Part shown: piece after piece, positions 29,503 to 61,254 of the stretch
Layout: each line of letters starts with the position of its first letter
Numbering within the stretch: the first letter of the stretch is position 1
Program-made: the position numbers and the translations under genes
Assembly (NCBI GenBank): GCA_035524075.1
Contig: DATKPP010000069.1
Coordinates: 3,414-67,413 of the forward strand
Length of the DNA: 64,000 bases
Direction: 5' to 3'
Origin: Steroidobacteraceae bacterium
GTDB taxonomy: Bacteria; Pseudomonadota; Gammaproteobacteria; Steroidobacterales; Steroidobacteraceae
The notes under the pieces: generated by a model
Told to the model about the DNA's origin: nothing
The model's database searches: none
The model's input: the letters and a program-made list of their open reading frames with translations, nothing else

Positions 29503-29684
29503 AGTGTTCTTACTGTAATGCGGTCCCAATACGCCGCGCAAGTGGTGCCGGCGCGAAAAAGTCCCGTGACCTGGCCGCAGGCCCCGGCCGATTCGGCCCG
29601 CGGAAAGTGCCGATCATCGCGTCCAGCATGCGACCCGTGACATCGGGGGTGCGAATTTCGGCCGCCCCGTTCACGATCCGGGGC

Positions 29685-35035: not shown

Positions 35036-37489
35036 TCAGTTGGGCTTACCCGCCTGAGGTATCGCAGCTTGGGTGGTCATCAAATCCGGTCGATCGTTGC
35101 CGGCGCCCGGCATGCGCTTCATCTCGAACTGCGGGCTCTCGATGATGCCGAGCACGATCGAGGAGAAGCGATACTGGTCCTGCGCGGCGGTGCGCACGAT
35201 GGCCCGTACGGTGGGCATGTCGTGGTAGTCGAGCGTGCGTCCGAGCGCGAACGTCATCAGCTTCTCGGTGAGAGTCTGGACGAAGCGCTCCGGGTTTCTC
35301 ATCAGCGCGCTGCGCAGATCATCCGGTCCTTTCACCTCACTGCCATCCGCCATCTGCCCCGTCGCATCGATCGGAAGTCCCGCGTCGCGGTCCTTCCACT
35401 GCCACTGCCCCATGGCATCGAAATTCTCGAGCGACAGCCCGATCGGATCCATGATCCCGTGGCAGGCGTTGCAGGAGGGCTGACGCCGGTGCATCACCAT
35501 GCGCTCGCGAATGGTCAGCTGAGCGGCGCCGGGCACATTCTCCTTCAGTGCCGGCACGGCAGGGGGCGGAGCATGCGGCGGAGTCCCGGTGATCACATCG
35601 AGCACCCACGCGCCGCGCAGCACGGGCGCCGTGCGGTTGGCGTACGAGGTCCCCATCAGAAGTGCGCCCTTGCCGAGCAGCCCATCGCGCCTGGAGTCGG
35701 GCAGCAGGACGCGCCGGAACTGCGCCCCCTGCACGTTCGGGATGCCGTATGCCAGCGCGAGCCGCTCGTTGACATAAGTCCAGTCTGCGGTCATCAGCTT
35801 GCGCACGTCGAGGTCGGCCAGGAGCACACTGTCGAGAAACAGACGCATCTCCTCGCGATAAGCCGAGCGCAGGTCCTCGTCGAACTCGGGATACTCGACC
35901 GGGTCGGGCTCGATCTTGTCCATGCTGTCCACCTCGAGCCACTGGAACGCAAAGTTCGTGACCAGCGATTCGGCGCGCGGATCGGTCAGCATGCGATGCA
36001 CCTCCCGCTCGAGCACGCCGGGATCGTGCAGCTTCCCGGCCGTGGCGAGCTTGAGAAGCTCGTCGTCCGGTCCCTCGCTCCAGAGGAAGAACGACAGACG
36101 CGAGGCCAGGTCGAGATCGCTGATCCGATAGATCCCGCCGACCTTGACCGCCGGCGGCGTGAGCTCAGCGCGGTACAGGAACTTGGGACTGCAGAGGATC
36201 GCGACGATGGCGCTCTGGATGCCTGCATCGAAGGTCTTGCCCTGGCGCCCGGCCGCGAAGAAGCGCATCGGAGCGGCAAGATCCGCATCGGTCACCGCGC
36301 GGCGGTACGCGGTGCGTGCGATCCTGCCGAGAATCTGTCGTGCGCAGGGCTCCTCATCCGCCGGTCCGCCGGGCTCGCAGACGAAGATCTTCCGTCGGCT
36401 GGGGGTCTCGCTGATGCCGCTGGGGTCGTACGGCCCCGTGATCTGCAGCCCGCCGATCCGCGCAATCCGATCCTCCCCGCCGCGCACGTTGTAGGGAAAG
36501 AGCGATTCGTCGGATTCGGCAAAGGTTCGCGCGATGAACGCCACGCCGACACGGTGAGGCCCGGCGGGAACGTGCACGCGGATGTGCTCGAAGCGCGCCT
36601 TGAGGTCCTTGGCGGAGTCGATCGGGTGCTGATCGGCCTCCTTGAGATCCTTCTCGCCACCGAGGGAGCGCTCGAAGACGCTCTGGTCGTCGATGGTCAG
36701 CACGACATCCTGCGGCTGATCGAGACCCACGATGTAGCCCACTCCGCTGAACACGTTCAGATCGAAATCGTAGTCCCCATCGGCGGGAAAATAATGCGTG
36801 ACCACCATGCCCCCGCGGGTTCCAAGGGGCAGGCCCTCGATGTGGAAAGCCTGGTCCTCCTTGCCGGCGCGATACACCGCGATGGCCTTGGGGGGATGCG
36901 GGTTGCCGATGGCGAGCTCGGCGATCGTGCGGGCCGCAGAGATGTATTGATCGAGGAAGGTCGGCGACACCTTCAAAACATCGGCGATGTTGTCGAAGTC
37001 ATCGCTCTTGGTCTCCTTGGGCAGCAGGGACGAAACGTCGAACGTCACATCCAGCATCTGCTCGACCGAGCGCGCGTACTCCGTACGGTTCAGACGATGC
37101 AGCACGACGTAGCCGGGGTCCGGGTGCATGGCGGCTGCGGCATCCAGATGGCCCTCCATCCAACGCAGGAAGGCATCCACCGTCGCCTGTGCCGGCTGCT
37201 TCTGGCCCGGCGGCGGCATCATGCGCCCGCTGAGCTTGGTGACCGCTGCCTCCCAGATCTTGGCATCGCCGGGGATGTCCCCCGGCTGCATCGTCCCGAA
37301 GGCGATGCCGCCCGCCCAGTCATCCGTGTTGTGACATTTCTCGCAGTAGGCGTTCAGCATGTGCCAGTAGGGCTTGGCCTGCGCGTCGGTCGCAGCCCCC
37401 GGCGGCAGCGGCGCGGAGTTGCCCGCGAAAGCCCCTGCGGGGATCGAGGCCACAGCGAGCGCTGCAGCCGCAAGGAGATGACGTCCCAC
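35036..37489 (-). CDS. DUF1592/DUF1588/DUF1585-type di-haem c protein (cassette 1)
   Basis: GTG 37489 overlaps the upstream TAG by 1 nt. Signal peptide GRHLLAAAALAVASIPAGAFA. Haem motifs YCEKCHNTDDWAGGIAF (37331-37345) and SCNACHGIMDPIGLSLENFD (35459-35473). The track ORF extends to 37792, overlapping the MBL gene. Confidence 0.75.
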   Translation of the reverse strand: MGRHLLAAAALAVASIPAGAFAGNSAPLPPGAATDAQAKPYWHMLNAYCEKCHNTDDWAGGIAFGTMQPGDIPGDAKIWEAAVTKLSGRMMPPPGQKQPAQATVDAFLRWMEGHLDAAAAMHPDPGYVVLHRLNRTEYARSVEQMLDVTFDVSSLLPKETKSDDFDNIADVLKVSPTFLDQYISAARTIAELAIGNPHPPKAIAVYRAGKEDQAFHIEGLPLGTRGGMVVTHYFPADGDYDFDLNVFSGVGYIVGLDQPQDVVLTIDDQSVFERSLGGEKDLKEADQHPIDSAKDLKARFEHIRVHVPAGPHRVGVAFIARTFAESDESLFPYNVRGGEDRIARIGGLQITGPYDPSGISETPSRRKIFVCEPGGPADEEPCARQILGRIARTAYRRAVTDADLAAPMRFFAAGRQGKTFDAGIQSAIVAILCSPKFLYRAELTPPAVKVGGIYRISDLDLASRLSFFLWSEGPDDELLKLATAGKLHDPGVLEREVHRMLTDPRAESLVTNFAFQWLEVDSMDKIEPDPVEYPEFDEDLRSAYREEMRLFLDSVLLADLDVRKLMTADWTYVNERLALAYGIPNVQGAQFRRVLLPDSRRDGLLGKGALLMGTSYANRTAPVLRGAWVLDVITGTPPHAPPPAVPALKENVPGAAQLTIRERMVMHRRQPSCNACHGIMDPIGLSLENFDAMGQWQWKDRDAGLPIDATGQMADGSEVKGPDDLRSALMRNPERFVQTLTEKLMTFALGRTLDYHDMPTVRAIVRTAAQDQYRFSSIVLGIIESPQFEMKRMPGAGNDRPDLMTTQAAIPQAGKPN

Positions 37490-38469
37490 TAGACCACTCC
37501 TCGCATCTCGCGCACGTGTGCGTAGAGCCCACGATAGGTGTTCTCGACGAAGAGGCTCGGACTTCCCCACGCGGGATCGAACTTGCGGGTCGCCCCTGCA
37601 GCGATCATGTCGTCCGCGCCGTAGCCCTTGCGCATCAGCTGCCAGAGATTTTCCTTGAGCGTGGCCAGCATCTCGTGCTCGGCTGCCAGCGCCGCGCGCG
37701 TCTGAACCGGTCCAACCCCGGGCACGATTCGCGTCTTGTCGTCGCTGATCTCGAGAAGCTTCTGCGTAGCATCGGCCATGCCGCCGATCCATCCGCCCGT
37801 GCAGTAATCGAGGATCGGGTATTGCCCGACCGAAAGCACGCAGCCGGCGACGAGCACATTCCGTTCACGCAAATGCACGTAGATGTCTCCGTCGGTGTGA
37901 GCCTGCGGAAGGTAGCCGTACTGGATGGTTTCCCCGCCGAAAGTCAGCGTACGTTCGCCGCCGTAGAAGGTCTCGGTGGGCCAAGCCTCGCGTGGACGAG
38001 GCTCGTAGGTTCGGTTCTGCCATTCTTCCCAGATCCGTGCGCCGAGCCACAGGCGGGTGTTCTCGTGCGCGATGATGCGAGCGCCGCTCTTGCGCACGAG
38101 ATCGTTGCCACCCGTGTGCTCCCAGTGCCAGTGGGTGTTGAAGAGGGTATCGATGCGCCGCCCGCCAGGCAGGTCCGAAACAGTGCGCAGCAGATCGTGC
38201 GCGCGATCCGGTGAGCCCGAATCGATGAGCAGCACGCCCTCGGGGCCGCTCAACGCGACGACATTCCCCCCCGCACCCGACACGATGGCCAGGTGATCAT
38301 CAAGAGCCGTGACCGCCAGGCGTCCGGAGCGCGTGCCGGGCCGAGCTGTCTGCACCGGGAGCGTGTCGGGATTGGAGCGTGCGTGGGCCGCTCGGCTGAG
38401 CCACGCAGATGCCGCAAGGCCGCTGGCCCCGCCCACGAGAGTCTTGAGAAACTTCCTGCGGCCCGACAT
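37489..38469 (-). CDS. Tat-exported metallo-beta-lactamase-fold protein (cassette 1)
   Basis: MSGRRKFLKTLVGGASGLAASAWLSRAAHA Tat signal. MBL motif variant THWHWEHTGGN (38116-38133 encodes HWHWEH). Later motif AHTDGD. Confidence 0.8.
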   Translation of the reverse strand: MSGRRKFLKTLVGGASGLAASAWLSRAAHARSNPDTLPVQTARPGTRSGRLAVTALDDHLAIVSGAGGNVVALSGPEGVLLIDSGSPDRAHDLLRTVSDLPGGRRIDTLFNTHWHWEHTGGNDLVRKSGARIIAHENTRLWLGARIWEEWQNRTYEPRPREAWPTETFYGGERTLTFGGETIQYGYLPQAHTDGDIYVHLRERNVLVAGCVLSVGQYPILDYCTGGWIGGMADATQKLLEISDDKTRIVPGVGPVQTRAALAAEHEMLATLKENLWQLMRKGYGADDMIAAGATRKFDPAWGSPSLFVENTYRGLYAHVREMRGVV

Positions 38470-38708: not shown

Positions 38709-40049
38709 ATGCCGGAGGCTGCCGCCGTTGGCTCCTCAGCGATCAGCCGCTCGCAGTGGCGCACGATCGTGCTCTCGAGCTTGGGCGGTGCGCTCGAGTT
38801 CTACGACTTCGTCATCTACAGCACGTTCGCCCAGTACATCGGGGATGCGTTCTTCGCCCCGGCGAAGAGCCCCCTCGTCGGCTTGATGCTCTCCTACTCG
38901 GTGTTCGCGCTGGGATACGTGCCGCGTCTGGTGGGCGGCATCATCTTCAGCCATTTCGGCGACAAGTACGGCCGCCGCCGCGTCTTCATCTTCTCGATCC
39001 TCATGATGTCCTCGGCCACGCTTGCGCTGGGGCTGCTGCCGAGCTACGCCCGATGGGGCACCGGGGCCACCGCCGGAGTGATCATCCTGAGGCTCATCCA
39101 GGGGTTCTCGCTCGGGGGGGAGCTTCCCGGCGCGATCACTTATGTCGTGGAGACCGCTCCGCAGCGCGCGGGCTTCTCCTCGGGCTTCATCTTCTTCTGT
39201 GTCAACACCGGCGTCGCCCTCGCCTCCGCGGTGGGCTTCGCGGTCGTGAAGCTGCTCGATCCGGTGCAAGTGGCGCAGTGGGGATGGCGGATTGGATTCC
39301 TGGTGGGCGGGCTTCTCGGGCTCGTGAGCTTCTGGCTCAGGCTATCCCTCTCGGAGACCGAGGAGTTCAAGAAGCTGCGTCACAAGGCCTCGAGACACCC
39401 CATTGTCGATCTCCTGCGCACCGCACCCGCCGCAACCGTCTTTGCGGTCGCGGCCATGGTCGCGAGCGCCGGATTCAATGGTCTGCTCTTCGCGATGCCA
39501 ACCTTCATGCAGCGTGTAATGCACCGCACCTACCTCGAGGGGATCGAGGCACAGAACATCGGATTGCTCGTCCTGTCTTTCTGCATGCTCCTCACGGCGT
39601 GGCTGAGCGATCGGATCCCCCGGCGCTGGATCCTGGCAGCCGGGGCGGCGCTGCTCGCCGCGTTCTCCTTCCCCTTCTTCGATGCCGCGGCGGGGCACAT
39701 GGTCCGGCTCATTCCGATCTTCATCGGCGCCGGACTGGCCGCCTCGCTCTGCAACGGCCCCATGGCCGGGATCGTCGCGGACCTCTTCCCGACGCGCATC
39801 CGCTTCAGCGGCGTCGCCGTCTCGTTCAATCTCGCTTTTTCCTTATTCAGCGGCACGGCCCCCCTGATCGCGACCGTCCTGGTCAGCAGCACGGGCTCGC
39901 CCACCGGACCGGCCTACTTCATGGTCGGCTGCGGGGTCATCACCTTCCTCGCCATGCTGTTCATCAAGCCTCACGAAGGCCGCATCCTCGGCGAGCCCGT
40001 AGAATCGACCTCCAGCGTGGCTGCGGCGCGATCTTTTCCGGCTCAGTGA
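38709..40049 (+). CDS. MFS transporter, metabolite:H+ symporter (MHS) family
   Basis: GGALEFYDFVIYSTFAQYIGDAFF and FGDKYGRRRVF are typical of the ProP/KgtP/ShiA-type MHS family. About 12 TM segments. Confidence 0.85.
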   Translation: MPEAAAVGSSAISRSQWRTIVLSSLGGALEFYDFVIYSTFAQYIGDAFFAPAKSPLVGLMLSYSVFALGYVPRLVGGIIFSHFGDKYGRRRVFIFSILMMSSATLALGLLPSYARWGTGATAGVIILRLIQGFSLGGELPGAITYVVETAPQRAGFSSGFIFFCVNTGVALASAVGFAVVKLLDPVQVAQWGWRIGFLVGGLLGLVSFWLRLSLSETEEFKKLRHKASRHPIVDLLRTAPAATVFAVAAMVASAGFNGLLFAMPTFMQRVMHRTYLEGIEAQNIGLLVLSFCMLLTAWLSDRIPRRWILAAGAALLAAFSFPFFDAAAGHMVRLIPIFIGAGLAASLCNGPMAGIVADLFPTRIRFSGVAVSFNLAFSLFSGTAPLIATVLVSSTGSPTGPAYFMVGCGVITFLAMLFIKPHEGRILGEPVESTSSVAAARSFPAQ

Positions 40050-40138: not shown

Positions 40139-41779
<1,641 letters not shown>

Positions 41780-41797
<18 letters not shown>

Positions 41798-43444
41798 ACG
41801 GGCCGGCCCACTTGCGACCTGCGGGCGTTGCGCCCCAGCTGCGCCCGGAGCACGCCCTCTGCCGCCGCCCGTGATCTGGGAGCGCTGGGCTCCACCGACG
41901 CCGATCTGCCGGTGCGAGAGGTCCTCGGCAAAGATGAGCGGCGGATGGCCCGTCTTTGCAACGATGAACTGCGTGAGCAGCTTGATGGTGTCGGTCTTGG
42001 GCGTCGGCTGTGGCTCGAGGAAGGCGCGAATGTAGTTGCCTCGCGCGTAGTCGATGGGGCGCAGGCCGATGCGATCCGTCGCCTGCAGATCCGCACCGTC
42101 GGCGACGAGCAGCTTGACGGTGTCGTTCCAGCCCTGTTTCGCCGCGCTGTGCAACGCAGTCAGCCCGTCATCGGCATGGTCGGTGATGGTGCCGCCGGCC
42201 GCGCGCAGCAACCGTACGCACTGCGCGGCCTGCTCGTCCGTCTTGTAGCGGCCTCGGGTCGGGTTGAAGCTCTGCCCCATCCCTGCGGCGGCCATGAGAG
42301 GTGTCACGCCCTCGGCGTTCGGCAAATTCACCAGCGCGTGGTACTTGAGGAGGAGCTTCACGGAGTCGACGTCCCCCACCTTCGCGGCCAGCAGCAGCGC
42401 CGTTGCACCCGTCGAGAGCACCTGATCACCGCCGCGGTCAAACACACCGTTGCGGTAGGGGGGACGCAGCTTCAGCTGCAGGTTGGGATCGGCACCCTTG
42501 GCCAGCAGCAGCTCGGCGATCTGATACCCGGTCGTGTCGTCCGTGGAGGGCAGATCCGGCCGGCCCCCCGTCGGCAAAGTATTCATATCGATCGCGACAT
42601 AGAGCGGGGTGTCGCCGAAGACATCCCATCGATTCACGTCCGCGCCTGCGGAGATCAGGTACTTCGCCAGATCGAAGTGCATGTTCATCAGCGCAACCAC
42701 GAGCGGAGTGGTGTCGTCCGGGTCGAGCGAGTTGATGTCCGCGCCTGCCTCGACCAGATACCGCGCACACGCGATGCAGTTCTCACGCGCCGCGAAGTGC
42801 AGCGCCGTGAGACCGCCGACGTTCATGATCTTGGGCCGCCCCTCGGCCGTCACGCGTCGCTGCCAGTCGCGAACCACCGAGCGGACGTTCAGCTGAGCTC
42901 CGTGGGAGATCAGCAGCTTCACCATCTCCGGCTGCCGCTGGGCGGCTGCCCACATGAGCGCCGTCTGCCCGCCCCAGCTCTCCACTGCGTTGACGTTGGC
43001 ACCGTGACTGAGCAGCAGCTTCGCGGCCTCGACGTCGCCGGTGCGGGCGACGACCATCAGTGCCGTTTGTCCCTCGGGATTCGGCGAGTTCACATCGGCG
43101 CCGGCGTCGAGCAGCATCTTGAGGATGGGCGTGTTCGGCGTGACGGCCGCTTCCTGCATCGAGGAGTCGCCGTAATCGTTCATCGCGGACACATCGGCGC
43201 CCTTGCGAATGAGTGCCTGCGCCAGCGCCGCATCGCCGTTGTAGACGGCCCACATCAACGCGGTGGTGCCATCCGAGGAGCGAGCACGCACGTCGGCACG
43301 TTGCCCGAGCAGCGTCATCGCCCCCGAGTGATTGTTCGCCTTGGCTGCCTCGATGAGCGATGCGGAAGCATCCTGCGCGCGCGCGACGGCAAAACTCGCC
43401 GTGCCGAGCACGCTCGCGAGCAGCACGAGGAGGAAACGGCGCAT
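41780..43444 (-). CDS. Exported ankyrin-repeat protein (cassette 2)
   Basis: ATG 43444 (MRRFLLVLLASVLGTASFAVARAQ signal), 11 nt after the upstream stop. Collinear with the cassette-1 ankyrin protein. The 3' end overlaps the aceB 3' end by 18 nt. Confidence 0.85.
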
Positions 43445-43455
43445 GGTGGTTCCCT

Positions 43456-44775
43456 TCAGATCTCGGAGAGCTCGCCCGTGCTGTCGCCGTGCGACTTCGC
43501 GGGAACCCCAACACGGTGCAGCATCGTCAGGAGAAGGTTGGCGTGGGGGGTATCCTGAGGGTAGTGCACGTGCTGGCCGCCCTTGACCGCGCCGCAACAC
43601 TTCCCCAACAGCACCTGCGGCAGCGGATCGTGGTTATGCATGTCGCTGTTGGCCATGTCGCTTCCGTAGAGGATCAGCGCGTGATCGAGCAGCGTGCCGT
43701 CGCCGTCCTTGGTCTGCGATAGCTGCTTCACGAAGCGCGCAAACGCCTCGGTCAGGTAGTGCTGCAGCCGCGTGAGCTTGGCGAGCTTGTCCGGGTCGTT
43801 GCCGTGATGCGAAAGCGGGTGCCAGGCATCGGTGATCCCGAGGTTCGGGAAGGTGCGCATGCTGACCTCCCGCGCCATCATGAAGGTCGAGACGTGCGTC
43901 ATGTTCGCCTGCCAGGAAAGCGCCATCATGCTGAACATGAGGTCGAGCATCTTCGCATAGTCTTGCGGGATGCCTTCCGGCGCGTTCGGCAGCTTCATGC
44001 CCGTACCGGATGCGAACTTCGCCTCCATTCCCCGGACTCGCCGCTCGATCTCCCGCACCGAATCGAGATAGTCACTGACCATGCGCCGGTCGGAGGCACC
44101 GAGCGTGCGCTGCAGATCGCTCGCGCTCGTCCTGACGAAATCGAGAATGCTGCCGTCCTCTCGCAGGATTGCCGCACGCTCCTGCGCCGTATCGCCCTCG
44201 CCGAACAGATTGGTGAACACGGTGCGAGGGTCCTGCTCCATCGGCAGAGGCTGCGAGCCGGTGCGGAAGGCGATGGTGCCTGAATAGCCGCACCCGAAAT
44301 CCGGATCGCACGCACCGCCGCCGCCCTCCCCCGCGAGCTCGAGCGAGATGAGCGGAGTGGCTCTGGAGAGCAGCTTCGCGGCGACCTGGTCCACCGACGG
44401 GCCCACGGCCGGGGCTTGCTGGTGTGGCGGGTGCACCGCCGTGAGCCACGTTCCTGGTGTGATGGCATGCGGCGCCGGGCTCTCCGCAGCCTTGTTCCGC
44501 AAGCCGCTCACGACGGTCAGATGCGAGCGGAACGGCTCGAGCGGCTTCAAGATCGGCGACATCTCAAAGCTCGTGCCCGCCGTCTTGGGCTGCCAGTTGT
44601 CCTGCACGGCGCCGTGTGGAATATAGATACAGGCCATGTACGGGGTCGGCTTGGCTGGCGTATCCGCGAGCGCCGTGGCGGCTGGAACCATGGCATCCAG
44701 CAGAGGCAGACCGAGGCTTGCGCCCACGCCCCTGAGAACGGTGCGCCGCGAAAGATGCTTCTTCGTGATGAACAT
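43456..44775 (-). CDS. DUF1552-type protein with twin-arginine signal (cassette 2)
   Basis: MFITKKHLSRRTVLRGVGASLGLPLLDAMVP. Collinear with 33677..35008, sharing blocks such as GCxYSGTIAF, DYLDSVREIERR, KGGQH and HGDSTG. Confidence 0.75.
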   Translation of the reverse strand: MFITKKHLSRRTVLRGVGASLGLPLLDAMVPAATALADTPAKPTPYMACIYIPHGAVQDNWQPKTAGTSFEMSPILKPLEPFRSHLTVVSGLRNKAAESPAPHAITPGTWLTAVHPPHQQAPAVGPSVDQVAAKLLSRATPLISLELAGEGGGGACDPDFGCGYSGTIAFRTGSQPLPMEQDPRTVFTNLFGEGDTAQERAAILREDGSILDFVRTSASDLQRTLGASDRRMVSDYLDSVREIERRVRGMEAKFASGTGMKLPNAPEGIPQDYAKMLDLMFSMMALSWQANMTHVSTFMMAREVSMRTFPNLGITDAWHPLSHHGNDPDKLAKLTRLQHYLTEAFARFVKQLSQTKDGDGTLLDHALILYGSDMANSDMHNHDPLPQVLLGKCCGAVKGGQHVHYPQDTPHANLLLTMLHRVGVPAKSHGDSTGELSEI

Positions 44776-44781
44776 GGCTGG

Positions 44782-47295
44782 TTACTCGTGCTCGCGTTGC
44801 GGGATCAACTGGGCCGTCTTGATCGGTGTCGCTCCGCCATGCGGAGCCGGTGCGGTGCGCGTCTGGAATTGCGGGCTGTCCACGATCCCCATCACCAGCG
44901 ACCAGAATCTGTAATCGTCCTTGGCACTCGTACGCACGATCTCGCGAACCTGCGGCATGTCCCGGTAATCGAGCGTGCGGCCGAGCGCATACGTCATCAG
45001 GTTCTCGGTCAGCGCCTGCACGAACTGATCCGGATGCTCGAGCAGGACGCGCCGCACATCGCCCGGTCCGTTCACCTTGAAGCCGCCCGGTAGAACGCCC
45101 GAAGCATCGATCGGCGTGCGCGTCACGCGGTCCCGCGCGCGCCATCGGCCTACCGCATCGAAATTCTCGAACGCAAGCCCGAGCGGATCGAGGATCCCAT
45201 GACAGGAGAAGCACCGCGGGTTGTTGCGATGGGCGGCCATCTGCTCGCGAATCGTCAGGATCTTCTCGTCACTGCCGGGGGTCTTCACGTCCAGGGTCAT
45301 CTTCACGCCGGGCGGCGGAGGATCGGGCGGTGTGCCTTTGAGCCGCTCGAGGATCCACTGTCCGCGCAGGACCGGCGCCGTACGGTTCGGATACGACGTT
45401 CCCATGAGGAAGGCACCCTTCCCGAGGAGTCCGTAGCGCACCGACTGCGCAGGCGTGAGCGTCACGCGACGGAATTGATTGCCCCGGACGTCATTGATGC
45501 CGTACAGCAGCGCGAGGCGCTGGTTCAGGAACGTGTAGTTGGCCGTGAGCAGATCGACCACGTCCTGATTGCCGCGGAAGATGCTGTCCACGAACAGCTT
45601 GAGCTCGGTGCGGAAGTCCTCCCGCGGGTCGCTGACGTACGGGAAGATCTTCGGGTCCGGATTGACCTCCGCGAGCCGCTCCACGTCGAGCCACTGGAAC
45701 GCGAAATTCGAGGCAAGCGTCATCGCTCGCGGGTCTGCGAGCATGCGATGCACCTGCGCCTGCAGCACCTGAGGCTCGTGCAAGCGGTTCTCGGAGGCAA
45801 GCGTGAGCAGCTCGCTGTCGGGCACGCTGCTCCAGAGGAAGAACGAGAGCCGCGAGGCGAGCTCGAGGTCGGTGATGCGGTACTCCTCGCCGGCCTTGAC
45901 GGCCATGGGCGTCGGTTCCGCCCGGTACAGGAAGAAGGGGCTCGCCAGGATCGCGGTGATCGCCCGGCGAATGCCCTCCTCGAATCCCCCGTGCTGCAGC
46001 CCGGAGGTATAGATCGCATAGAGGGGATCGAGGTCCTGCGAGGTGACTGGACGCCGGTAGGCCTCGCGCGTGAGCCTCGAGATGATCTGCTCGGCGCACG
46101 GCCGCTGCTCGGCCGGGGTCTTCGGCATGCACGTGAAGATCCTCTCCCGGCTCGGGGTCTCGCCGAGGCCGGTGACCTTCAGGGGACCCAATACCTCGAA
46201 TGTCGCGATCCGCAGCACCTCGTCCTGGGCATCTCCCGGCTGCTCGAGCTCCAGCCGCCCTTCCGATTCGGCGAAGTCGCGATGAATGAAGGTGACCGCG
46301 ATCTGATGCGGGCCCGCGGTGGCGTGGAAGCGAATGTGCTTGAGCGTCGCATTGATCGCATCGACCGCGGGGTCCTGCTTCTGGTCGATCGCCTTGATCT
46401 GCTTCTCGCCGCCCACGACGCCTTCCCAGAATCGCTTGCCGTCGTAGGTCGCGACGATGTGATTCTCGAACTCCTGGTTGAACACCCAGAGCGCGGCGGC
46501 AAGGTTGCCGATGTTGAGCTCATAATCGCCATCGGCGGGGAAAACATGCGTCACCTGAAAGCCGCCCCGAGTACCAAGAGGCAGCCCGGGCTCGTGGAAG
46601 AACTGCGAGCCATTCTCCGGCCCGGCGTGATACTGCGTGCCGACCGATGTTGCATCGCGGTTGCCGACCGCCTGGATCGCGACCTGGCGCGCGGCTGAAA
46701 GATACTGGCCCAGGAACGAGGAGGACACCTGCAGCACGCCGGCGATGTTGTCATAGCCGCCCGCCTGGTCGTCCGGGGGCAACAGCCGATCCGGATCGAC
46801 CTTCACCCGCAGCAGATCCCACACCGCATTGGCGTATTCCTTGCGGTTCAGGCGATGCAGGGCGACCGAGCCCGCGTACGGGTGCGGGGCCGCCGCGCGG
46901 TCGATGGTGCCTTCCATCCACTGGACGAACTGATCCACCGCGGCCTCGGGGGGCTGAGGATGGCCCGGTGGGGGCATCAGATGCCCGTTCAGGTGATTGA
47001 TCGCCTTTTCCCAGGTTTGCGAATCGCTCGGAATCTGCGACGGGCTCATCGTGTCGAAGGCGATGCCGCCGGCCCAGTCGTCGGTGTTGTGGCACTTGCT
47101 GCAGTACTGCTTGAGGAACCCCCAGTACTGCCGCGCCTGACCATCGGCCATCGCGCCCGTTGCATCACCGGCCGGAGCGGTAGCGCTCGCGCTCGTGGTG
47201 TCGCCCGGGGACTGCCCCGGGGCGCTCCAGGCGGGCAGCATCACGCCGCACGCCATCGCGGCAAGCAGGAACCGGCTCAGCTGTCGATTGGTCAT
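44782..47295 (-). CDS. DUF1592/DUF1588/DUF1585-type di-haem c protein (cassette 2)
   Basis: Signal MTNRQLSRFLLAAMACGVMLPAWSA. YCSKCHNTDDWAGGIAF (47089-47103) and RCFSCHGILDPLGLAFENFD. Collinear with 35036..37489. Confidence 0.75.
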   Translation of the reverse strand: MTNRQLSRFLLAAMACGVMLPAWSAPGQSPGDTTSASATAPAGDATGAMADGQARQYWGFLKQYCSKCHNTDDWAGGIAFDTMSPSQIPSDSQTWEKAINHLNGHLMPPPGHPQPPEAAVDQFVQWMEGTIDRAAAPHPYAGSVALHRLNRKEYANAVWDLLRVKVDPDRLLPPDDQAGGYDNIAGVLQVSSSFLGQYLSAARQVAIQAVGNRDATSVGTQYHAGPENGSQFFHEPGLPLGTRGGFQVTHVFPADGDYELNIGNLAAALWVFNQEFENHIVATYDGKRFWEGVVGGEKQIKAIDQKQDPAVDAINATLKHIRFHATAGPHQIAVTFIHRDFAESEGRLELEQPGDAQDEVLRIATFEVLGPLKVTGLGETPSRERIFTCMPKTPAEQRPCAEQIISRLTREAYRRPVTSQDLDPLYAIYTSGLQHGGFEEGIRRAITAILASPFFLYRAEPTPMAVKAGEEYRITDLELASRLSFFLWSSVPDSELLTLASENRLHEPQVLQAQVHRMLADPRAMTLASNFAFQWLDVERLAEVNPDPKIFPYVSDPREDFRTELKLFVDSIFRGNQDVVDLLTANYTFLNQRLALLYGINDVRGNQFRRVTLTPAQSVRYGLLGKGAFLMGTSYPNRTAPVLRGQWILERLKGTPPDPPPPGVKMTLDVKTPGSDEKILTIREQMAAHRNNPRCFSCHGILDPLGLAFENFDAVGRWRARDRVTRTPIDASGVLPGGFKVNGPGDVRRVLLEHPDQFVQALTENLMTYALGRTLDYRDMPQVREIVRTSAKDDYRFWSLVMGIVDSPQFQTRTAPAPHGGATPIKTAQLIPQREHE

Positions 47296-47471
47296 CAGTC
47301 TCGTCCCCGCCCATGATGCGGCACCGAAATATCATATCGCCGCCTGCACGCCCTGGTCCCGGAAGGTCACGGACTGTGCCGGACAGGTCATAAAATGCGC
47401 GGCTCGCGCCACCAATAGTACCCATTACGTCACCTGGCAGGCCGCCGCCAGTTGCCAAGCACCCGATCGAT

Positions 47472-47490
47472 CGGTCAACGTTCGTCTCGG
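47472..47490 (-). promoter_or_regulatory. Candidate shared cis-element upstream of cassette 2 (CCGAGAC-N3-CGTTGACCG on the operon strand)
   Basis: Plus strand cggtcaacg-ttc-gtctcgg, 177-195 nt upstream of the DUF1592-type start and 33-51 nt upstream of the divergent MBL start. Confidence 0.25.
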
Positions 47491-47522
47491 CGCGCGCCTT
47501 AGTCTCGAGTCGAGGTCGAGTC

Positions 47523-48467
47523 ATGATACGTTCGGTAGACCGCAGGGGCTTCCTCAAGACGCTGGTGGGAGGTACCGCCGCGGCATCGCTTGGTGGCCTC
47601 GCCGCCTCGGCCCGAGCCCGGGCGGCCGAGCCCAATGCCGCCATCGAGATCCAGAAGCTCGGCGAGGGCCTGTGGATCTACACCGGTGATGGTGGAAATG
47701 TGCTCGTTGCGCGCGCTGGCGACGGTCTTGCACTGGTCGATGGCGGGCTCCCGGAGCGCTCGCACGAGCTGCTCGATCGCATTCGCCACGAAACCGGCGC
47801 CGAGCGCATCCACACGCTCTTCAACACCCACTGGCATCCATGCCAGACGGGCTCCAACGGGCCGATCGGAGATCAAGGCGCAACGATCATCGCGCACGAG
47901 AACACGCGGCTGTGGCTTTGCTACGCGAATCCCGTTCCCGAGGAGACCCGCACCTACGGTCCTCTGCCACCCAAAGCGCGTCCGAACAAGACGTTCTTCT
48001 ACAAGACCGAGCAGGTGAGCGTGGGGAACGAGCCCGTCGAGTACGGCTATCTGCTGCAGGCCCACACCGACGGTGACATTTACGTGCACTTCAAGAAGGC
48101 GAACGTCATCGCGGCGGGCGGCGTCGTGTCGGGCGCCGGATGGCCGATCATCGATTTCCACACCGGCGGGTGGATCGTCGGGATGACGCAGGGACTCGAG
48201 AGTCTGATCAATGTCGCCGATGATGCCACCCGCATCGTGCCGGCCCACGGCCCCGTGCTCACGAAGGCCGATCTCATCGCACAGCACACGATGTACTCGA
48301 CGATCTCGGCGCGCCTGGAGCGGTCGATCCGCAAAGGTCTTGGACCGGACGAGGTGGTCGCGCTCGATCCGACGGCCGAGTTCAATGCGCAATGGGGCGA
48401 CCCGAAGGCGTTCGTGAGGATGGCGTTCCAGAGCCTCTGGGGACACTTCGCGCCCGATGCATCGTGA
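47523..48467 (+). CDS. Tat-exported metallo-beta-lactamase-fold protein with degenerate metal motif (cassette 2, inverted)
   Basis: MIRSVDRRGFLKTLVGGTAAASLGGLAASARARA Tat signal. Collinear with 37489..38469, but motif 2 reads HWHPCQ (47829-47846). Confidence 0.8.
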   Translation: MIRSVDRRGFLKTLVGGTAAASLGGLAASARARAAEPNAAIEIQKLGEGLWIYTGDGGNVLVARAGDGLALVDGGLPERSHELLDRIRHETGAERIHTLFNTHWHPCQTGSNGPIGDQGATIIAHENTRLWLCYANPVPEETRTYGPLPPKARPNKTFFYKTEQVSVGNEPVEYGYLLQAHTDGDIYVHFKKANVIAAGGVVSGAGWPIIDFHTGGWIVGMTQGLESLINVADDATRIVPAHGPVLTKADLIAQHTMYSTISARLERSIRKGLGPDEVVALDPTAEFNAQWGDPKAFVRMAFQSLWGHFAPDAS

Positions 48468-54856: not shown

Positions 54857-57541
54857 TCATGAGCCCGTGGCTGCTCCGGCCGCACTCTGCGCACTCTGCG
54901 GAGCGGACACAGCATGTGAAGCAGTGCCCCCCTGCGGGGTGGGCGCATCGTGCGGGGTGGGCGCATCGTGCGGAGTGGGCAAGCTGCGGGGGGCCGGCGG
55001 CCCCTGCGGCTCGGAGTCCTCGTCCGAGCCTGCGCTCGGACCGATCGTGGGAGCCGCGAGCTGCGCTGCGGCGTGGCGCACCGCGGCGCGACCCGCCTCC
55101 TCGGCGGAGGGAGGCAGCTGCTCGACCCCGAGCGCTGCGAAGTTGATGACGGAAGGATCATCTCGCAGCTTCACGTAGAGCTGCCCATCGGTGGGATGCG
55201 GTACCGGCAAAGCGTAACCGGGGAAGCCGTCCGGGACCTCGATCGGATGGTGGAACTTCGGGTCCGTCGAGACGGCATCGACCAGGAACAGGTTCGATCC
55301 GGAGAGCTTGCATGCGAGCTCCGGGGTTGCCGGGCATTTGAGCTCCTTCAGCAGCGGCAGCCGCACCAGGGTGGCCAGCGGCTGCCAGTCGCCGACCACA
55401 CCACCGGCAGCGACGCGGAACTTCAGGGGCCCGAACGCGGAGGGCCCGAAGGCTTTGGCCGGATCGAGCGTCGCCACGGCGACGCTGGCATCCTCGAGCG
55501 TGATTCCACCATTGCCCAGGCTCAGCGTGGTGGAGAAGGAGTCGTCCGCGGTCGCCACGTCGATCTGCTCATCGTGCGCGAAGAACGCTGGGGATTTGGC
55601 GCGCAGCGAGAAGGTCAGCTTCGCCGCCTGGGGCAGCTCGTCCGGATTGGCGAGCTCGATATTGCTATCGCTCGCCACCGCCGTGAGCACGCTCTTGCCG
55701 ATGAGAGCGACGCTGGGCCGCGGGGGAGCAATCGTCGTGGCGAGCGCGAACGTGCGACCATCTTTGAGAGTGACCCGCGCCTGAAGACTCGCGCCCTCCT
55801 TGAGCGAGCCGGCTGCTTTGGGATCCCGTGCGACCATCGCCAGCTCATCTGTCGCAAGCGTGGTGGACAACTTAGCCGGCGCGAAATCCACCGACTGGAT
55901 GCTGAGACTTGCCACCTCATCGAGACGGCTGCCCTTGAGCAGCCCCTCGGTATCACCGGTGTGGATCGTGAAGCTATCCAGGTGGCCCGCCTCGGAGAAT
56001 GCATGCAGGGCAACGGACTGCGGTTGGCTTGCGCCGAACTGCCTCACCAGCAGCGTGATGGGGCCGGGCTGCACCTCCTTCAGCGGCAGACTCAACTCGG
56101 CCTCCGTGGGCTTCAGACGCTTCCACTGCAGCTTGAGATCCTTGCCGCCCGGGTCCCGGAGCATGATGCTATCCACGCAGCTCATGCTGGCGGCACGCAG
56201 GTGCACCGTATCGTCTCGGCCGACGATCAAGGCCCCCTCGTTCGGGGATTCCAGCTCCCACTTCTCGGTGCGCGCATTGGTCAGCTGAAACTCGGGTCCC
56301 TCGTAGGACTGAAAGCCCCAGCGACCGCGCAGTGCCGCGTGGATGGTCTCCCCGAGTGATGCGACTCCGGCGCCCGAGGTATCCACCACGAAGCCGCCTT
56401 GCTCGGGGTCTGCCTTCGCCGGCAGCTCGAGTGTCTGGCCGCCGGGTGCGCTCAGGCGCAGCCGCATGTCGTGAGCGTAGTCGGTCGAGAACACGAGCGG
56501 TGCGCCCTCGACCGGCAGCACCAGAGAGTTCTTGCGCGCGCAGAAGATCTCCTTGGGATCCACGGCGTGCAGCGGCGGCAGCTGCGGCGCCTCGACCGCC
56601 GGCAAAGCGGCCACCAGCACGGACATCGGGCTGTGAAACGAAGGCGGTGTGTTGAGCGTCAAGCTCACATCGTCTGCGTGCTGCGAGGCAAGCGCTGGGA
56701 TGTATTGATACTGTGCGACGTCGAAGGACCCCAGGATGCGCGCGATGTCGAGCACCGAGGCGATGTAGGGGCTGTAGTAGCCGTAGCTCAGCTGCGGTGT
56801 ATAGCTCGCCTCCATCGCAAGGTCGGCCGTCGGACCGGAGGTGAGTGCCTCGACGATCGAGGTGCTGTGACCGTCATCGAGGATCAGCGAATCCTGGTTC
56901 TCCATCAAACAGGCCGCCTGCAGGGCGGGGATGCGGTCCAGGCACTTGCCGTTCACCTGGATCGCAAGACTGCGGCCCAGAAGCGGGGCGACCTCCTTCA
57001 GGCGCGTGGGATCGGAATCGTCGAGGGCACGGATGGCAGCCAGATACACATCGAGCCGCGACCGATCCAGGCTCGCCTGATTGAGATCCTGCGAGGCACG
57101 CACGAATGCGCCCGGCCGGCCGCGCACCGCGCCGACGAGCGTTCTGAAGTCCCCGCCTGTCTTGGGCGCGAGAAATACGAGGACCTGCTGCGCACCCGGC
57201 GGCACCGTGACCGTCATGCCCTTGCTCGCACACGGACCCGTCCAGGTATCGCAGCGATAGAACGAGCGCGGCGGAGGCGGATTGGTCGAGCCGCGCAGAA
57301 ACGCCGCCACCAGGATGTAGCGTGTCGTTTGCGTCGCCGGCAGATCAGCCTTGATCCAGATGCGATCGCCGCTGGTGAGATTCGGCACCTCGGAGATCGG
57401 CAGGGTCTCGTCCCCGTGGGTGACCTTGACCTCCAGGGTAGGGCCCGTCAGGTCGAACGGGCCCCCGCCCGCGTGCACCGGCCCGGCAAGGAGCAGTGCG
57501 AGCGCAGCGGCAAAACGCAAAGAACGGTGATGCGAAACCAT
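54857..57541 (-). CDS. Large secreted protein of unknown function (894 aa)
   Basis: ATG 57541. Signal MVSHHRSLRFAAALALLLAGPVHA. No motif I recognise. C-terminal low-complexity tail with PTPHDA repeats. Confidence 0.6.
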   Translation of the reverse strand: MVSHHRSLRFAAALALLLAGPVHAGGGPFDLTGPTLEVKVTHGDETLPISEVPNLTSGDRIWIKADLPATQTTRYILVAAFLRGSTNPPPPRSFYRCDTWTGPCASKGMTVTVPPGAQQVLVFLAPKTGGDFRTLVGAVRGRPGAFVRASQDLNQASLDRSRLDVYLAAIRALDDSDPTRLKEVAPLLGRSLAIQVNGKCLDRIPALQAACLMENQDSLILDDGHSTSIVEALTSGPTADLAMEASYTPQLSYGYYSPYIASVLDIARILGSFDVAQYQYIPALASQHADDVSLTLNTPPSFHSPMSVLVAALPAVEAPQLPPLHAVDPKEIFCARKNSLVLPVEGAPLVFSTDYAHDMRLRLSAPGGQTLELPAKADPEQGGFVVDTSGAGVASLGETIHAALRGRWGFQSYEGPEFQLTNARTEKWELESPNEGALIVGRDDTVHLRAASMSCVDSIMLRDPGGKDLKLQWKRLKPTEAELSLPLKEVQPGPITLLVRQFGASQPQSVALHAFSEAGHLDSFTIHTGDTEGLLKGSRLDEVASLSIQSVDFAPAKLSTTLATDELAMVARDPKAAGSLKEGASLQARVTLKDGRTFALATTIAPPRPSVALIGKSVLTAVASDSNIELANPDELPQAAKLTFSLRAKSPAFFAHDEQIDVATADDSFSTTLSLGNGGITLEDASVAVATLDPAKAFGPSAFGPLKFRVAAGGVVGDWQPLATLVRLPLLKELKCPATPELACKLSGSNLFLVDAVSTDPKFHHPIEVPDGFPGYALPVPHPTDGQLYVKLRDDPSVINFAALGVEQLPPSAEEAGRAAVRHAAAQLAAPTIGPSAGSDEDSEPQGPPAPRSLPTPHDAPTPHDAPTPQGGTASHAVSAPQSAQSAAGAATGS
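54933..54980. repeat. 18-nt tandem repeat, about 2.7 copies, in the 3' end of CDS 54857..57541
   Basis: tgcggggtgggcgcatcg x2, then tgcggagtgggc. In frame; encodes (PTPHDA)n on the minus strand. Confidence 0.85.
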
Positions 57542-57847
57542 GGCGATGCTTGCCCCCCTGGCGCGTCGAAGGTTCGATGCCGAGGACGCGGAATGAGTTC
57601 CCCGCGTCGCGACCGGCGAGCGCACTCCTTGAGCGCCCGCTGCGTCTGCGATCCCGTTGCGCGCCCAAGTTATGGATTCGGATGGGATTCGTCAACCCCG
57701 ATGGCCCGCAATTGGTTTAGAATGCCCGCCCCTGGTCGGCGGCCCGGACGATCGCATCGCCGAGCCTCGCACCCCCGGCCCCCGGAGCCTCGAGGCTGCA
57801 TTGCAACCCTCGATGGGTCCGGCGTCTCCAACGAAAGGATCATAAGA

Positions 57848-60800
57848 ATGGGTGTCTGCAGCATGTATCGATCGAGTCTCATCGGCACGGCGCTGGGTGC
57901 GCTTGTGCACTTGAGTGCAGCCTCGGCAGCCCAGCACGCCCTGATGCGATTTCCGACGCTGTATGGCGACAGTCTCGCCTTCGAGGCGCACGGTAACCTG
58001 TGGGCCGTGCCACGCACGGGTGGCCTCGCGCGGCGCCTCACCTCCGAGCCCGGCTATGATTTGATGCCGCGCTTCTCGCCCGATGGACGCTGGCTTGCGT
58101 TCACGGCGAGCTATCAGGGCAATCAAGACGTCTACGTCATGCCGGCGAGCGGCGGGGAGGCGCGGCGTCTGACGTTCCATTCCGACGTTGTCGATCGCGC
58201 TCCCGAGCGGTGGGGACCGGACAACATGGTCGTCACGTGGACCCCCGACTCCAGGAACGTCGTGTTCCTCTCGCGTCGCATGGCGCGGCATGCGAGCGAG
58301 CCGCAGCTCTACGAGGTCGCAGTGAGCGGCGGCCTTCCGAGGCCTCTGCCGCTCGACAGCGGCGGCCTGGCCACCTACAGCCCCGACGGCCAGTCGATCA
58401 CCTACAACCGCATCTTCCGTAACTTCCGGACCTGGAAGCGCTACGACGGCGGCATGGCCCAGGACGTCTACACGTACAACTTCGGCACACGTACGCTCGA
58501 GCGCATCACGCGCTGGAAGGGCACCGATACGGCCCCGATGTGGTTCGGCCGCAAGATCTATTTTCTTTCCGACCGCGATGCAGCGCGACGCGAGAACATC
58601 TGGGTCTACGATCTCGACAGCAAGCAGTTCACGGAAGTCACTCACTTCAGGGACTTCGATATCGACTTTCCGAGCCTGAGCGCCGAGCAGGAGCACGCTC
58701 CCGGGATCACCTTCCAGCAAGGCGGCTTCCTGTGGGTGCTCGATCTGCCCACCGAGCAGCTGCACAAGCTCGAAGTGAGCGTGCCCGACGACGGAGTACG
58801 CACGGGGACTCGCTTCGTCGAGGCCAGCAAGTACATCCGCGAGCGCGACAGCGCTCAGCAAACCGACTACGCGCTTGCGCCCAATGGCAAGCGAGTGCTC
58901 TTCTCGGCGCGCGGCGACATCTTCAGCCTCCCTGCAGAGCACGGCGCGACACGCGACCTCACCGCCACGAGCAATGCCGACGAGGATCATCCGAGCTGGT
59001 CACCGGATGGCAAGACGATTGCGTACACGACCGACGTTGACGGGGGGCAGCAGATCGCAACCCGACCCGCCGAGGGTGGGCCCGAGAGGATTCTCACTCA
59101 CTTTGCCACGGGCTTCTTCTACACGCCCGTGTGGTCTGCCGATGCCAAGCACCTCGCCTTCGCCGACGGCAACCATCGGCTGTGGCTGCTCGACGTCGCA
59201 AGCGGCAGGACCACACAGGTCGCGCAGGACAAGTTCACGGAGATTCACGACCAGAGCTTCTCCCCGGATGGGCGCTGGCTCGCCTACAGCATCACCCGCG
59301 ACAATCAGCAGCGGGGCATCTGGATCTACTCGCTCGAGTCTGCCAAGGCACAGGAGATCTCGCAGCCTCTTGGCAACGATTTCGGCCCGGTGTTCTCTCC
59401 CGATGGCAAGTACCTCTACTTCGTCTCCGCGCGGCACGAGAATCCGACGCTGAGCGAGGTCGAGTTCGATGCGGCGATGCTCGAGATGGACGGCATCTAC
59501 GTCACGACGCTGCGCAAGGATGCGCCTGCGCCGTTTGCGCCGCGCTCGGACGAGGGGGCCGTCGAGCCCGAGAAGCCGAAGCCCACACCCTGGAAACCGG
59601 GTGCCTCGGCGCCGGTGCAGATCGACTTCGACGGACTCATGGGTCGTGCCACACCGCTGCCCATCCCGGCCTCGGACATCGCGAGCCTCGATGCGCGAGG
59701 CGACAAGCTCATCTATCAAACAGTCGCGCCGCAGATGATCGATGGGCCCCTGCCCGGGCAGAAGCCGGCGCTGCACATCTACGATCTGGCCGACCGCAAG
59801 GACGGAGTCATCGTCGAGGATCTGAGCACCTATAGCCTCTCGGCCGATGGCTCGAAGGTGCTGTACAAGAAAGTCGGCCCGGGCGATCACTACGAGATCG
59901 TCGAGGCCAAGGCGCAAGGCGATGGGCCCCCGAAGCCCACGCCCCTCGATGTGTCGCACATGCTGATGCGAATCGAGCCGACCCAGGAGTGGGCGGAGAT
60001 GTTCAACAATGCCTGGCGGCTGGAGCGTGACCTGTTCGTCAACTCGCGGATGAACGGCGTCGACTGGCCCGCGGTCCACCACGCTTACGCCAAGCTGCTG
60101 CCGCTCGTCGGCTCGCGCGAGGATCTCAACTACCTCATCGGCGAGGTTCAGGGCGAGCTCAGCAACTCCCACACCTACGTGGGCGGCGGCGACGATGGGG
60201 ATCTGACCCCGCGCGCACCGACACCCCTCCTGGGGGTGGACTTCGCGCTCGATGGCGCCTCCGGCCGCTATCGCATCGAGCGCATCCTTCCCGGCGACAA
60301 CACGCGTCCGGACTACCGCAGTCCCCTGACCGAGCCCGGCCTCGCGGTACATCAGGGCGATTATTTGATCGCGGTGAACGGACGCGAGCTGCAGGCCCCC
60401 TCCGACCCCTATAGCCTGTTCGCCGGACTGGGTGAGCAGCCCGTCGCACTGACCGTGGCGGCGAGCGCGGGCGGCCAGCGCCACGAAGTGACGGTGGATC
60501 CCATCCCCAATGAGCTCTCCATACGCCAGCGAGCCTGGATCGACCACAACCGCGAGGTCGTTGACAAGCTCTCCGGCGGCCGCATTGCGTACGTGTATAT
60601 GGCCGACATGGAGGCACTCGGCATGGAGCAGTTCGTGCGCCAGTTCTTTCCGCAGCTCAACAAGCGCGCGCTCATCATGGATGACCGCTGGAACGGCGGC
60701 GGATTCATCGATCAGATCGTGCTCGAGCGGCTGCGGCGCATGCTGATCGGCATGGATACCAATCGCGAACGGGCGGCAACCTCGATTCCGCAGCAGCTCA

Positions 60801-61213: not shown

Positions 61214-61254
61214 CAGGGGACTGCGAAACAACCTTGGCGCTAGAATCGCGCCCC

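Follow-up and report, generated by a model that had tools for sequence, protein, structure and literature searches.

What is the segment at positions 41780–48467 of a 64,000-nt stretch of Steroidobacteraceae DNA (contig DATKPP010000069.1; the whole stretch is hereafter the window): a recent repeat of the gene cassette that lies beside it, or an older, separate member of the same family? The segment encodes a metallo-beta-lactamase-fold protein (MBL), a DUF1592-type cytochrome, a DUF1552 protein and an ankyrin-repeat protein (Ank), and the same four genes recur nearby. According to the open reading frame (ORF) list, the contig gene calls and Pfam, the gene order is MBL-DUF1592-DUF1552-Ank in both copies, and the window holds two intact four-gene periplasmic cassettes. 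We consider it probable that the segment, hereafter copy 2, belongs to a conserved family of periplasmic operons, of which it is the second intact member here. The features of the two copies are as follows.

Copy 2
41780..43444, minus strand: Ank, periplasmic ankyrin-repeat protein, 554 amino acids (aa), Sec-type signal peptide
43456..44775, minus strand: DUF1552/HXXSHH protein (PF07586), 439 aa, twin-arginine-type N-terminus KKHLSRRTVLRG
44782..47295, minus strand: DUF1592-type dihaem c-type cytochrome (Pfam), 837 aa
47296..47522: divergent intergenic region between the DUF1592 and MBL genes, 227 nt
47523..48467, plus strand: MBL-fold protein (Lactamase_B) with a putative twin-arginine translocation (Tat) signal, 314 aa, divergently transcribed

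Copy 1
37489..38469, minus strand: MBL-fold protein with a putative Tat signal, 326 aa
35036..37489, minus strand: DUF1592-type dihaem cytochrome, 817 aa
33677..35008, minus strand: DUF1552 protein, 443 aa
32084..33673, minus strand: periplasmic ankyrin-repeat protein, 529 aa
31308..32078, minus strand: cytochrome b561 (PF01292, 9e-24), 256 aa

Divergence of the two copies

The locus had previously been described from its letters and ORF translations (the sequence-only reading). The coordinates and strands given there for the four copy 2 genes are exact by the ORF list, with which the gene calls of the source contig agree, and the gaps of 11 nt (Ank-DUF1552), 6 nt (DUF1552-DUF1592) and 227 nt (DUF1592-MBL) are as claimed. 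Copy 1 is a tightly packed five-gene minus-strand operon with b561 as its last gene; the MBL stop codon overlaps the DUF1592 start by 1 nt, and gaps of 27 nt and 5 nt separate DUF1592 from DUF1552 and Ank from b561, respectively.

In BLASTP comparisons, all four protein pairs are collinear over their full lengths. Identity is 52% for Ank (252/485, 2e-157), 53% for DUF1552 (237/445, 5e-168) and 51% for DUF1592 (421/831, E = 0), and amounts to 42% for MBL (132/315, 1e-84). The earlier estimate that roughly half of the residues are identical is therefore accurate for the first three proteins and too high for MBL. The motifs quoted in support of homology, namely DYLDSVREIERR, both CxxCH motifs, NVRS..QR.VTAE.R and LKL.PPYR....DRGGD, are found in both copies. 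At the DNA level, a collinear stretch of 3.76 kb is 64% identical, and the MBL piece matches in the inverted orientation with 68% identity; inside the coding regions, nucleotide identity is 59–62%. At identical residues, the third codon positions of copy 1 and copy 2 agree at a frequency of 0.53–0.57, and the highest identity of any 30-codon window is 0.79. Synonymous sites are nearly saturated, and no patch of high identity is left between the copies.

Given the low DNA identity, the lack of any 30-codon window above 0.79 and the third positions that match at only 53–57%, recent duplication and gene conversion were both rejected. Pseudogenisation of copy 2 was likewise ruled out: all its ORFs are intact, and residues that are invariant in the families, including the two CxxCH motifs and HxxSHH, are kept in both copies. 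The closest relatives of each cassette are found elsewhere, with orthologues in other genomes (loci L003, L004, L041 and L032) at 75–89% identity, compared to 51–53% between the copies. Near-saturated synonymous sites and closer orthologues in other genomes mark an old paralogous system rather than a recent repeat, as the sequence-only reading had proposed.

The divergent intergenic region of copy 2 (47296–47522) is probably a shared promoter or regulatory region. The blocks GTTGACyGATC, GCTTGGCAA, CACAGTC and GGCGwTATnAT are conserved with L004, L006, L008 and L009, even though the proteins of these four orthologous loci are only 58–85% identical, which suggests that the blocks are conserved regulatory sites. 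A promoter scan of 30.5–49 kb gave no match to the sigma-70 consensus; terminator-like hairpins are few in the same interval, rarer than in shuffled sequence, and an Rfam scan of 30–49.5 kb found no RNA family.

Inheritance of the cassette in two phyla

Related loci were collected by a DUF1552-alignment scan, with one genome per GTDB species, which yielded 80 loci (L-numbers denote these loci and further relatives). Most come from Steroidobacteraceae and other Gammaproteobacteria and from Bryobacteraceae and other Acidobacteriota, and ORF calling combined with BLAST against the window proteins shows that the cassette gene order is kept in nearly all of them. One locus from an alphaproteobacterium, L026 (a Euryhalocaulis metagenome-assembled genome, MAG), carries two complete cassettes in tandem.

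For the 52 cassettes that carry all four genes, neighbour-joining trees were built from the four alignments. The four protein trees have 29–37 of 49 non-trivial splits in common, against 0.17 after label shuffling, and the distance matrices of the four proteins correlate with pairwise Mantel r of 0.76–0.88, with 0 of 999 permutations as high. An index of whether a protein is closer to copy 1 or to copy 2 gives Spearman coefficients of 0.82–0.89 between families. In each of the four trees, bootstrap support is 100% for the group of copy 1 with L041 and L032 and 87–97% for that of copy 2 with L004, L006, L008 and L009. The comparison of tree topologies for the four paralog pairs, which had been put forward as the way to tell block duplication from independent recruitment, thus yields congruent trees and favours block inheritance. 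The lower identity of the MBL pair is explained by a clock that is uniformly faster than that of DUF1552: the MBL distance is, at the median, 1.69 times the DUF1552 distance, and the ratio of 1.42 found between the two window copies does not exceed this median. A separate recruitment of MBL, as the low identity might have indicated, was rejected on the same grounds, MBL being about 1.7 times faster than DUF1552 in all pairs.

In the concatenated tree, the copies fall into two deep clades, each with members from Steroidobacteraceae and Acidobacteriota; inside each type, the two phyla are for the most part split into subclades of their own. These trees assign the copies to two ancient types that split as a whole block, either through one duplication of the entire cassette or through acquisition of a complete paralogous one; since then, each type has been passed on as a unit, by descent as well as by transfer between Gammaproteobacteria and Acidobacteriota. 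That both types occur in two phyla shows movement of whole cassettes. The two types are co-resident in eight assemblies, and the window, L007 and L021 are Steroidobacteraceae loci in which they lie side by side; such frequent co-residence and adjacency point to non-redundant roles. L021 (Steroidobacteraceae HOG51) contains three cassettes in 21 kb, interleaved with two pyrroloquinoline quinone (PQQ) dehydrogenases. L085 carries a 70%-identical copy 2 orthologue with the same flanking genes for malate synthase, a major facilitator superfamily (MFS) transporter and LigAB.

How the two cassettes came to lie together can be explained in several ways. The placement of the copies 3.3 kb apart, in the same order and mostly in the same orientation, is what a recent segmental (tandem) duplication inside this genome would produce, with copy 2 diverging fast or decaying. 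The nucleotide identity of 59–64%, the near-saturated synonymous sites without high-identity tracts, the intact copy 2 ORFs with their family invariants, and the far greater closeness of each copy to its orthologues elsewhere than to its neighbour leave this scenario with virtually no credibility. Convergent operon assembly, in which the DUF1592, DUF1552, Ank and MBL genes would have been recruited independently, could account for the variable position of MBL and for the divergent placement of Ank in more distant relatives; it is difficult to reconcile with four congruent trees that show the same copy 1 and copy 2 groupings at 87–100% bootstrap, with copy 1-versus-copy 2 distances that correlate between the families, and with an MBL divergence that fits the general MBL rate ratio, and we regard it as very improbable.

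A more serious alternative is that one cassette was acquired whole by horizontal transfer, possibly from Acidobacteriota, rather than duplicated within Steroidobacteraceae. The presence of both types in Gammaproteobacteria and in Bryobacteraceae and other Acidobacteriota implies that whole-cassette transfer between phyla has happened, and the Bryobacterales MAG palsa_144 carries the two types on separate contigs. Against this, the types are adjacent in at least three Steroidobacteraceae loci, as an ancestral tandem duplication would leave them, the GC content is uniform (0.65–0.66) throughout both cassettes and their flanks, and the phyla are mostly separated within each type. Horizontal acquisition accordingly seems possible, if rather doubtful, and for the split of the block we lean towards tandem duplication, which adjacency and uniform GC favour over acquisition.

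Which genes belong to the unit can be read from their linkage, counted in those cassettes that have enough flanking sequence on the contig. Ank follows DUF1552 in 68 of 72 evaluable cassettes, DUF1592 precedes DUF1552 in 60 of 65, and MBL is present in 47 of 52; these rates apply to the subfamily only, because the 80 loci were selected by DUF1552 similarity. Look-ups anchored on MBL return the same cassette. Since the linkage is kept across two phyla, the four genes can be argued to work as a unit, which lends support to the proposal made from the sequence alone.

Two other elements of that proposal, a five-gene cassette of which copy 2 retained four genes and a missing b561 that would point to a shared membrane partner or an altered electron route, were not borne out. 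The b561 gene follows 4 of 62 evaluable cassettes, all four close to copy 1, so its absence is the normal state, and b561 is a late add-on of a small copy 1 subclade rather than a gene lost by copy 2. Membership is instead layered across relatives. Distant DUF1552 homologues (34–38% identity) have the DUF1592 partner only, without Ank or MBL, and in a 47%-identical DUF1552 relative Ank is placed divergently and MBL is absent. The layers consist of a universal DUF1592-DUF1552 core, which Ank joins in a large subfamily and MBL in the copy 1/copy 2 subfamily, with b561 coming last. MBL is the most mobile member: among the evaluable cassettes, 34 have it upstream in the same orientation, 8 upstream in divergent orientation and 5 downstream. 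A divergent MBL is common to ten related cassettes in the copy 2 part of the tree and hence is no peculiarity of this genome; in copy 2, it results from an old rearrangement.

The four proteins and their possible function

The DUF1552 proteins match PF07586 (HXXSHH/DUF1552) with E-values of 7.5e-83 (copy 2) and 1e-83 (copy 1) and belong to a family of 16,520 clusters at 50% identity (E <= 1e-3); a relaxed Pfam scan of DUF1552 found no second family. Their signal region, MFItKKHL.RRt.LrG.G....LPlLDAM.PA.TAla, is at least 90% conserved in 88 homologues from several phyla. This is far better than is usual for a signal peptide and may reflect a dedicated chaperone or retention in the mature protein. 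Twin-arginine motifs (SRRTVLRG, RRGFLKTL and RRKFLKTL) are read directly in the N-termini of DUF1552 and MBL, and the MBL signals of both copies conform to RRxFLK; Pfam TAT_signal, with a cut-off of 22.7 bits, gives only 17.7 for the copy 2 MBL and 11.8 for the copy 1 DUF1552 protein. The conserved His and Cys residues of DUF1552 are H54, H103, C156, C162, H319, H323, H324, H365 and H380. In a Foldseek search with an AlphaFold model of moderate confidence (pLDDT 74.7), the top 30 matches are all sulfatase, LtaS, YejM or ENPP structures (best E 8.5e-6, probability 1.0, with TM-scores of 0.33–0.41). The matches are consistent in kind, and the predicted fold may be that of the alkaline-phosphatase superfamily, to which these proteins belong. 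Unlike the members of that superfamily, to which it shows no sequence similarity, DUF1552 has mostly His and Cys among its conserved residues, the Asp/Ser-Thr-FGly set was not spotted by eye, and the protein is paired with a cytochrome, which is unusual there.

The DUF1592 protein of copy 2 consists of an N-terminal PSCyt1-like haem domain followed by PSD3, a beta-sandwich, PSD5, PSD4, PSCyt3 and PSD2; the PSD3, PSD5, PSD4 (DUF1592), PSCyt3 and PSD2 matches are all above the Pfam gathering score in both copies. The protein carries a Sec-type signal and is predicted to be largely helical, with a middle jelly-roll domain that, by Foldseek of the model, resembles CBM6 and C1q. The CxxCH motifs C65/C68/H69 and C695/C698/H699, predicted to bind haem, do not vary among 57 sequences and are found in both copies. 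The DUF1552 gene lies directly downstream on the same strand in both window copies as well as in distant relatives. In one of these relatives, L087 (3176–8137), a distant DUF1592 homologue has a CBM60 at the jelly-roll position, and the gene after its DUF1552 partner encodes a thioredoxin-fold (DsbH-like) protein in place of Ank.

Proteins of this kind, known as planctomycete-specific cytochromes, have puzzled annotators since Rhodopirellula baltica, and PSCyt3 genes usually adjoin one family of genes without known function (PMC5615132); in Cbp2D, a redox protein, DUF1587 adjoins domains of c-type cytochromes (PMC8981238). The PSCyt3-DUF1552 pairs of Planctomycetes and Verrucomicrobia have the same PSD3-PSD5-PSD4-PSCyt3-PSD2 architecture with CxxCH, encoded directly upstream of DUF1552. 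In contrast to these pairs, the window cassettes add a periplasmic ankyrin protein and a putatively Tat-exported MBL-fold protein, both of which the distant pairs lack, the extended form is found in Gammaproteobacteria (Steroidobacteraceae) and Acidobacteriota, and two ancient types reside in one genome.

In the Ank family, the loops W.R.VT.EpR, WD..Gr.pLY and PPyR....DRG.D, together with a CxxC pair (C223/C226 in copy 2), are at least 90% conserved in 78 homologues. Copy 2 Ank ends in a tail of about 50 aa (41780–41930), rich in G, R and A, that neither copy 1 nor the rest of the family has and that may be a read-through extension; the 3' end of the gene overlaps that of the convergent malate synthase gene by 18 nt. 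A possible analogue is AnkB of Pseudomonas aeruginosa, a periplasmic ankyrin-like protein which, as Howell et al. are said to have reported in 2000, is needed for full activity of the catalase KatB. Like cassette Ank, AnkB would be an exported ankyrin-repeat protein encoded beside a haem protein that it presumably supports. The partner of cassette Ank is, however, a dihaem cytochrome/DUF1552 pair and not a catalase, and the protein is far longer (529–554 aa), with family-specific loops and a conserved CxxC.

The MBL-fold proteins are atypical. They match Lactamase_B with 59.8 bits (copy 1) and 34.4 bits (copy 2, 2.7e-8) against a cut-off of 22.7, and the canonical HxHxDH motif is absent, being replaced by HWHWEH in copy 1 and HWHPCQ in copy 2. 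The family consensus is NTHWHp[E/D][Q/H]TG plus AHTDGD, with the His of AHTDGD conserved and the last His ligand not; near residue 103, copy 2 has the sole Cys at the Asp/Glu position among 63 family members. None of the class B beta-lactamase (B1/B2/B3) NCBIfam models was passed (best 59.5 bits, cut-off 200), and PDB sequence matches to Sfh-I and CphA reach E 1e-7 at best. Neither protein reaches any NCBIfam cut-off; the top match of both is TIGR04559, where copy 1 scores 76.6 bits and copy 2 49.1 bits and 280 would be required. Together with TIGR04558, this model describes SoxH-like "quinoprotein relay" hydrolases, which resemble the cassette proteins as periplasmic MBL-fold proteins with a linkage to PQQ-alcohol dehydrogenases; such hydrolases are linked to PQQ-ADH clusters, for instance PP_2678 in the ped cluster of Pseudomonas putida (PMC12997753). 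The cassette MBLs differ in scoring far below the cut-off, in their degenerate metal motif and in their partners, which include no SoxYZ-like carrier or rhodanese. JGI labels MBL homologues "cyclase", which was taken as automatic annotation and not as evidence. Near the cassettes of eight loci, among them L018 (17473–19323), there recurs a protein of about 616 aa that joins an uncharacterised N-terminal half to a C-terminal MBL domain about 30% identical to cassette MBL.

A tentative mechanism can be outlined. All four proteins would be exported, DUF1552 and MBL by Tat-type signals, DUF1592 and Ank by Sec-type signals. DUF1552 would be the catalytic subunit, with an alkaline-phosphatase/sulfatase-like scaffold and a His/Cys set that probably binds metal. 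As its obligate partner, DUF1592 would carry electrons through its two c-type haems between DUF1552 and a periplasmic redox pool, for example quinohaemoprotein PQQ dehydrogenases or, where b561 is present, the quinone pool, and its jelly-roll domain might bind substrate. The ankyrin protein would serve as a scaffold or stabiliser of the complex, and the MBL-fold protein, with one of the two usual metal sites kept, as an accessory hydrolase. As a whole, this scheme is no more than possible; the setting of DUF1587 in Cbp2D, the linkage of SoxH-like MBLs to PQQ-ADH clusters and the reported support of KatB by AnkB are compatible with it.

In a clustering of the ORFs that flank the 80 loci, PQQ dehydrogenases are the one recurrent neighbour. 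Genes of the PQQ methanol/ethanol dehydrogenase family, many with a C-terminal cytochrome c, are found within 7 kb in 24 of the 80 loci and within about 1 kb in 12, and follow Ank directly in the copy 2 orthologous loci L004, L006, L007, L009, L010, L019 and L021. A PQQ dehydrogenase also directly adjoins the cassette in L025, L043, L065 and L093. We treat this adjacency as a lead and not as a result. By analogy with the SoxYZ-like/SoxH-like "quinoprotein relay" genes of ped/xox clusters, for which PP_2678 is a precedent, the cassette could be an accessory module for the maturation, repair or electron relay of periplasmic PQQ quinohaemoprotein dehydrogenases rather than an enzyme in its own right, a reading to which the direct adjacency in copy 2 orthologues and in L093, as well as TIGR04559 as the top match of both MBLs, would lend some weight. 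The TIGR04559 scores are far under the cut-off, 56 of the 80 loci, and the window itself, are without a nearby PQQ dehydrogenase, and the DUF1592-DUF1552 core is widespread without adjacent PQQ genes, all of which makes an accessory role improbable. A different and unlikely possibility is that the cassette forms an undescribed periplasmic redox complex in which a His/Cys metal centre of DUF1552 is wired to DUF1592 as its dedicated dihaem cytochrome, the two types being isoenzymes that feed or drain an electron pool shared with PQQ dehydrogenases.

Several points weigh against the reading of copy 2 as a member of a conserved periplasmic operon family with the function outlined above. The 80 loci were chosen by DUF1552 similarity via an N-terminal peptide, which confines the linkage rates to the subfamily; the trees were made by neighbour joining from corrected p-distances rather than by maximum likelihood; and deep nodes, such as the full copy 2-type clade, are weakly supported in the single-gene trees. 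The fold matches of DUF1552 have low TM-scores (0.33–0.41) and come from a moderate-confidence model (pLDDT 74.7), Foldseek of the DUF1592 model gave no match with E <= 0.001, and comparison of DUF1552 and DUF1592 with PDB, as single sequences and as profiles, returned nothing meaningful. The 64-kb window contains no PQQ dehydrogenase, with malate synthase and the MFS transporter at that position, and PQQ genes may be numerous anyway in Steroidobacteraceae and Bryobacteraceae.

Neighbouring genes and the place of the cassette in its family

As described in the sequence-only reading, a transporter and a malate synthase separate the two copies, which is confirmed by the contig gene calls.

38709..40049, plus strand: MFS transporter, metabolite/H+ symporter-like (contig gene calls, NCBIfam)
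40139..41797, plus strand: malate synthase (contig gene calls)

The top NCBIfam match of the transporter is the metabolite/H+ symporter family, with 303 bits against a cut-off of 443. On the other side of copy 1, a cytochrome c' gene (30779–31252, plus strand; PF01322, 4e-29) lies tail to tail with b561, adjacent to a LysR regulator (29628–30671) and two very large TonB-dependent receptors (25222–29211 and 21075–24383). Elsewhere in the window, a 794-aa protein (9262–11646, plus strand) combines two radical-SAM stretches with a C-terminal CofH region, as a fused FO synthase for F420 biosynthesis might, and a luciferase-like monooxygenase (19793–20797, plus strand) is encoded near this gene. 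A 1604-aa Tricorn-like protease (PD40 repeats, Tricorn C1, PDZ and Peptidase_S41) occupies 56399–61213 on the plus strand; three long minus-strand ORFs in its span (54857–57625, 57692–58990 and 59000–61231) have no Pfam match.

The DUF1592-DUF1552 pair was already known. In the searched literature, where these DUF numbers come up in only a handful of papers, no ankyrin or MBL partner of DUF1592/DUF1552 is described, and the four-gene form, the two co-resident ancient types and the spread over Gammaproteobacteria and Acidobacteriota appear to be undescribed. Many soil Gammaproteobacteria and Acidobacteriota keep the cassette together as a block. It marks a subfamily outside the Planctomycetes-Verrucomicrobia-Chlamydiae (PVC) phyla in which an exported ankyrin protein and an atypical MBL-fold protein are fixed as additional partners. 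PQQ alcohol dehydrogenases and b561 are recurrent hints at the periplasmic electron pathways that the cassette touches. If the redox-complex interpretation were true, redox chemistry would be carried out on a scaffold known for hydrolysis, the isoenzymes would serve different substrates or conditions, and the very large DUF1552/DUF1592 families, with DUF1501/PSCyt2 by analogy, would become accessible to functional study for the first time. The paralogy as such is ordinary; the value of the locus lies in a delimited, compact four-protein module with a natural paired comparison, which offers an entry to a very large family.

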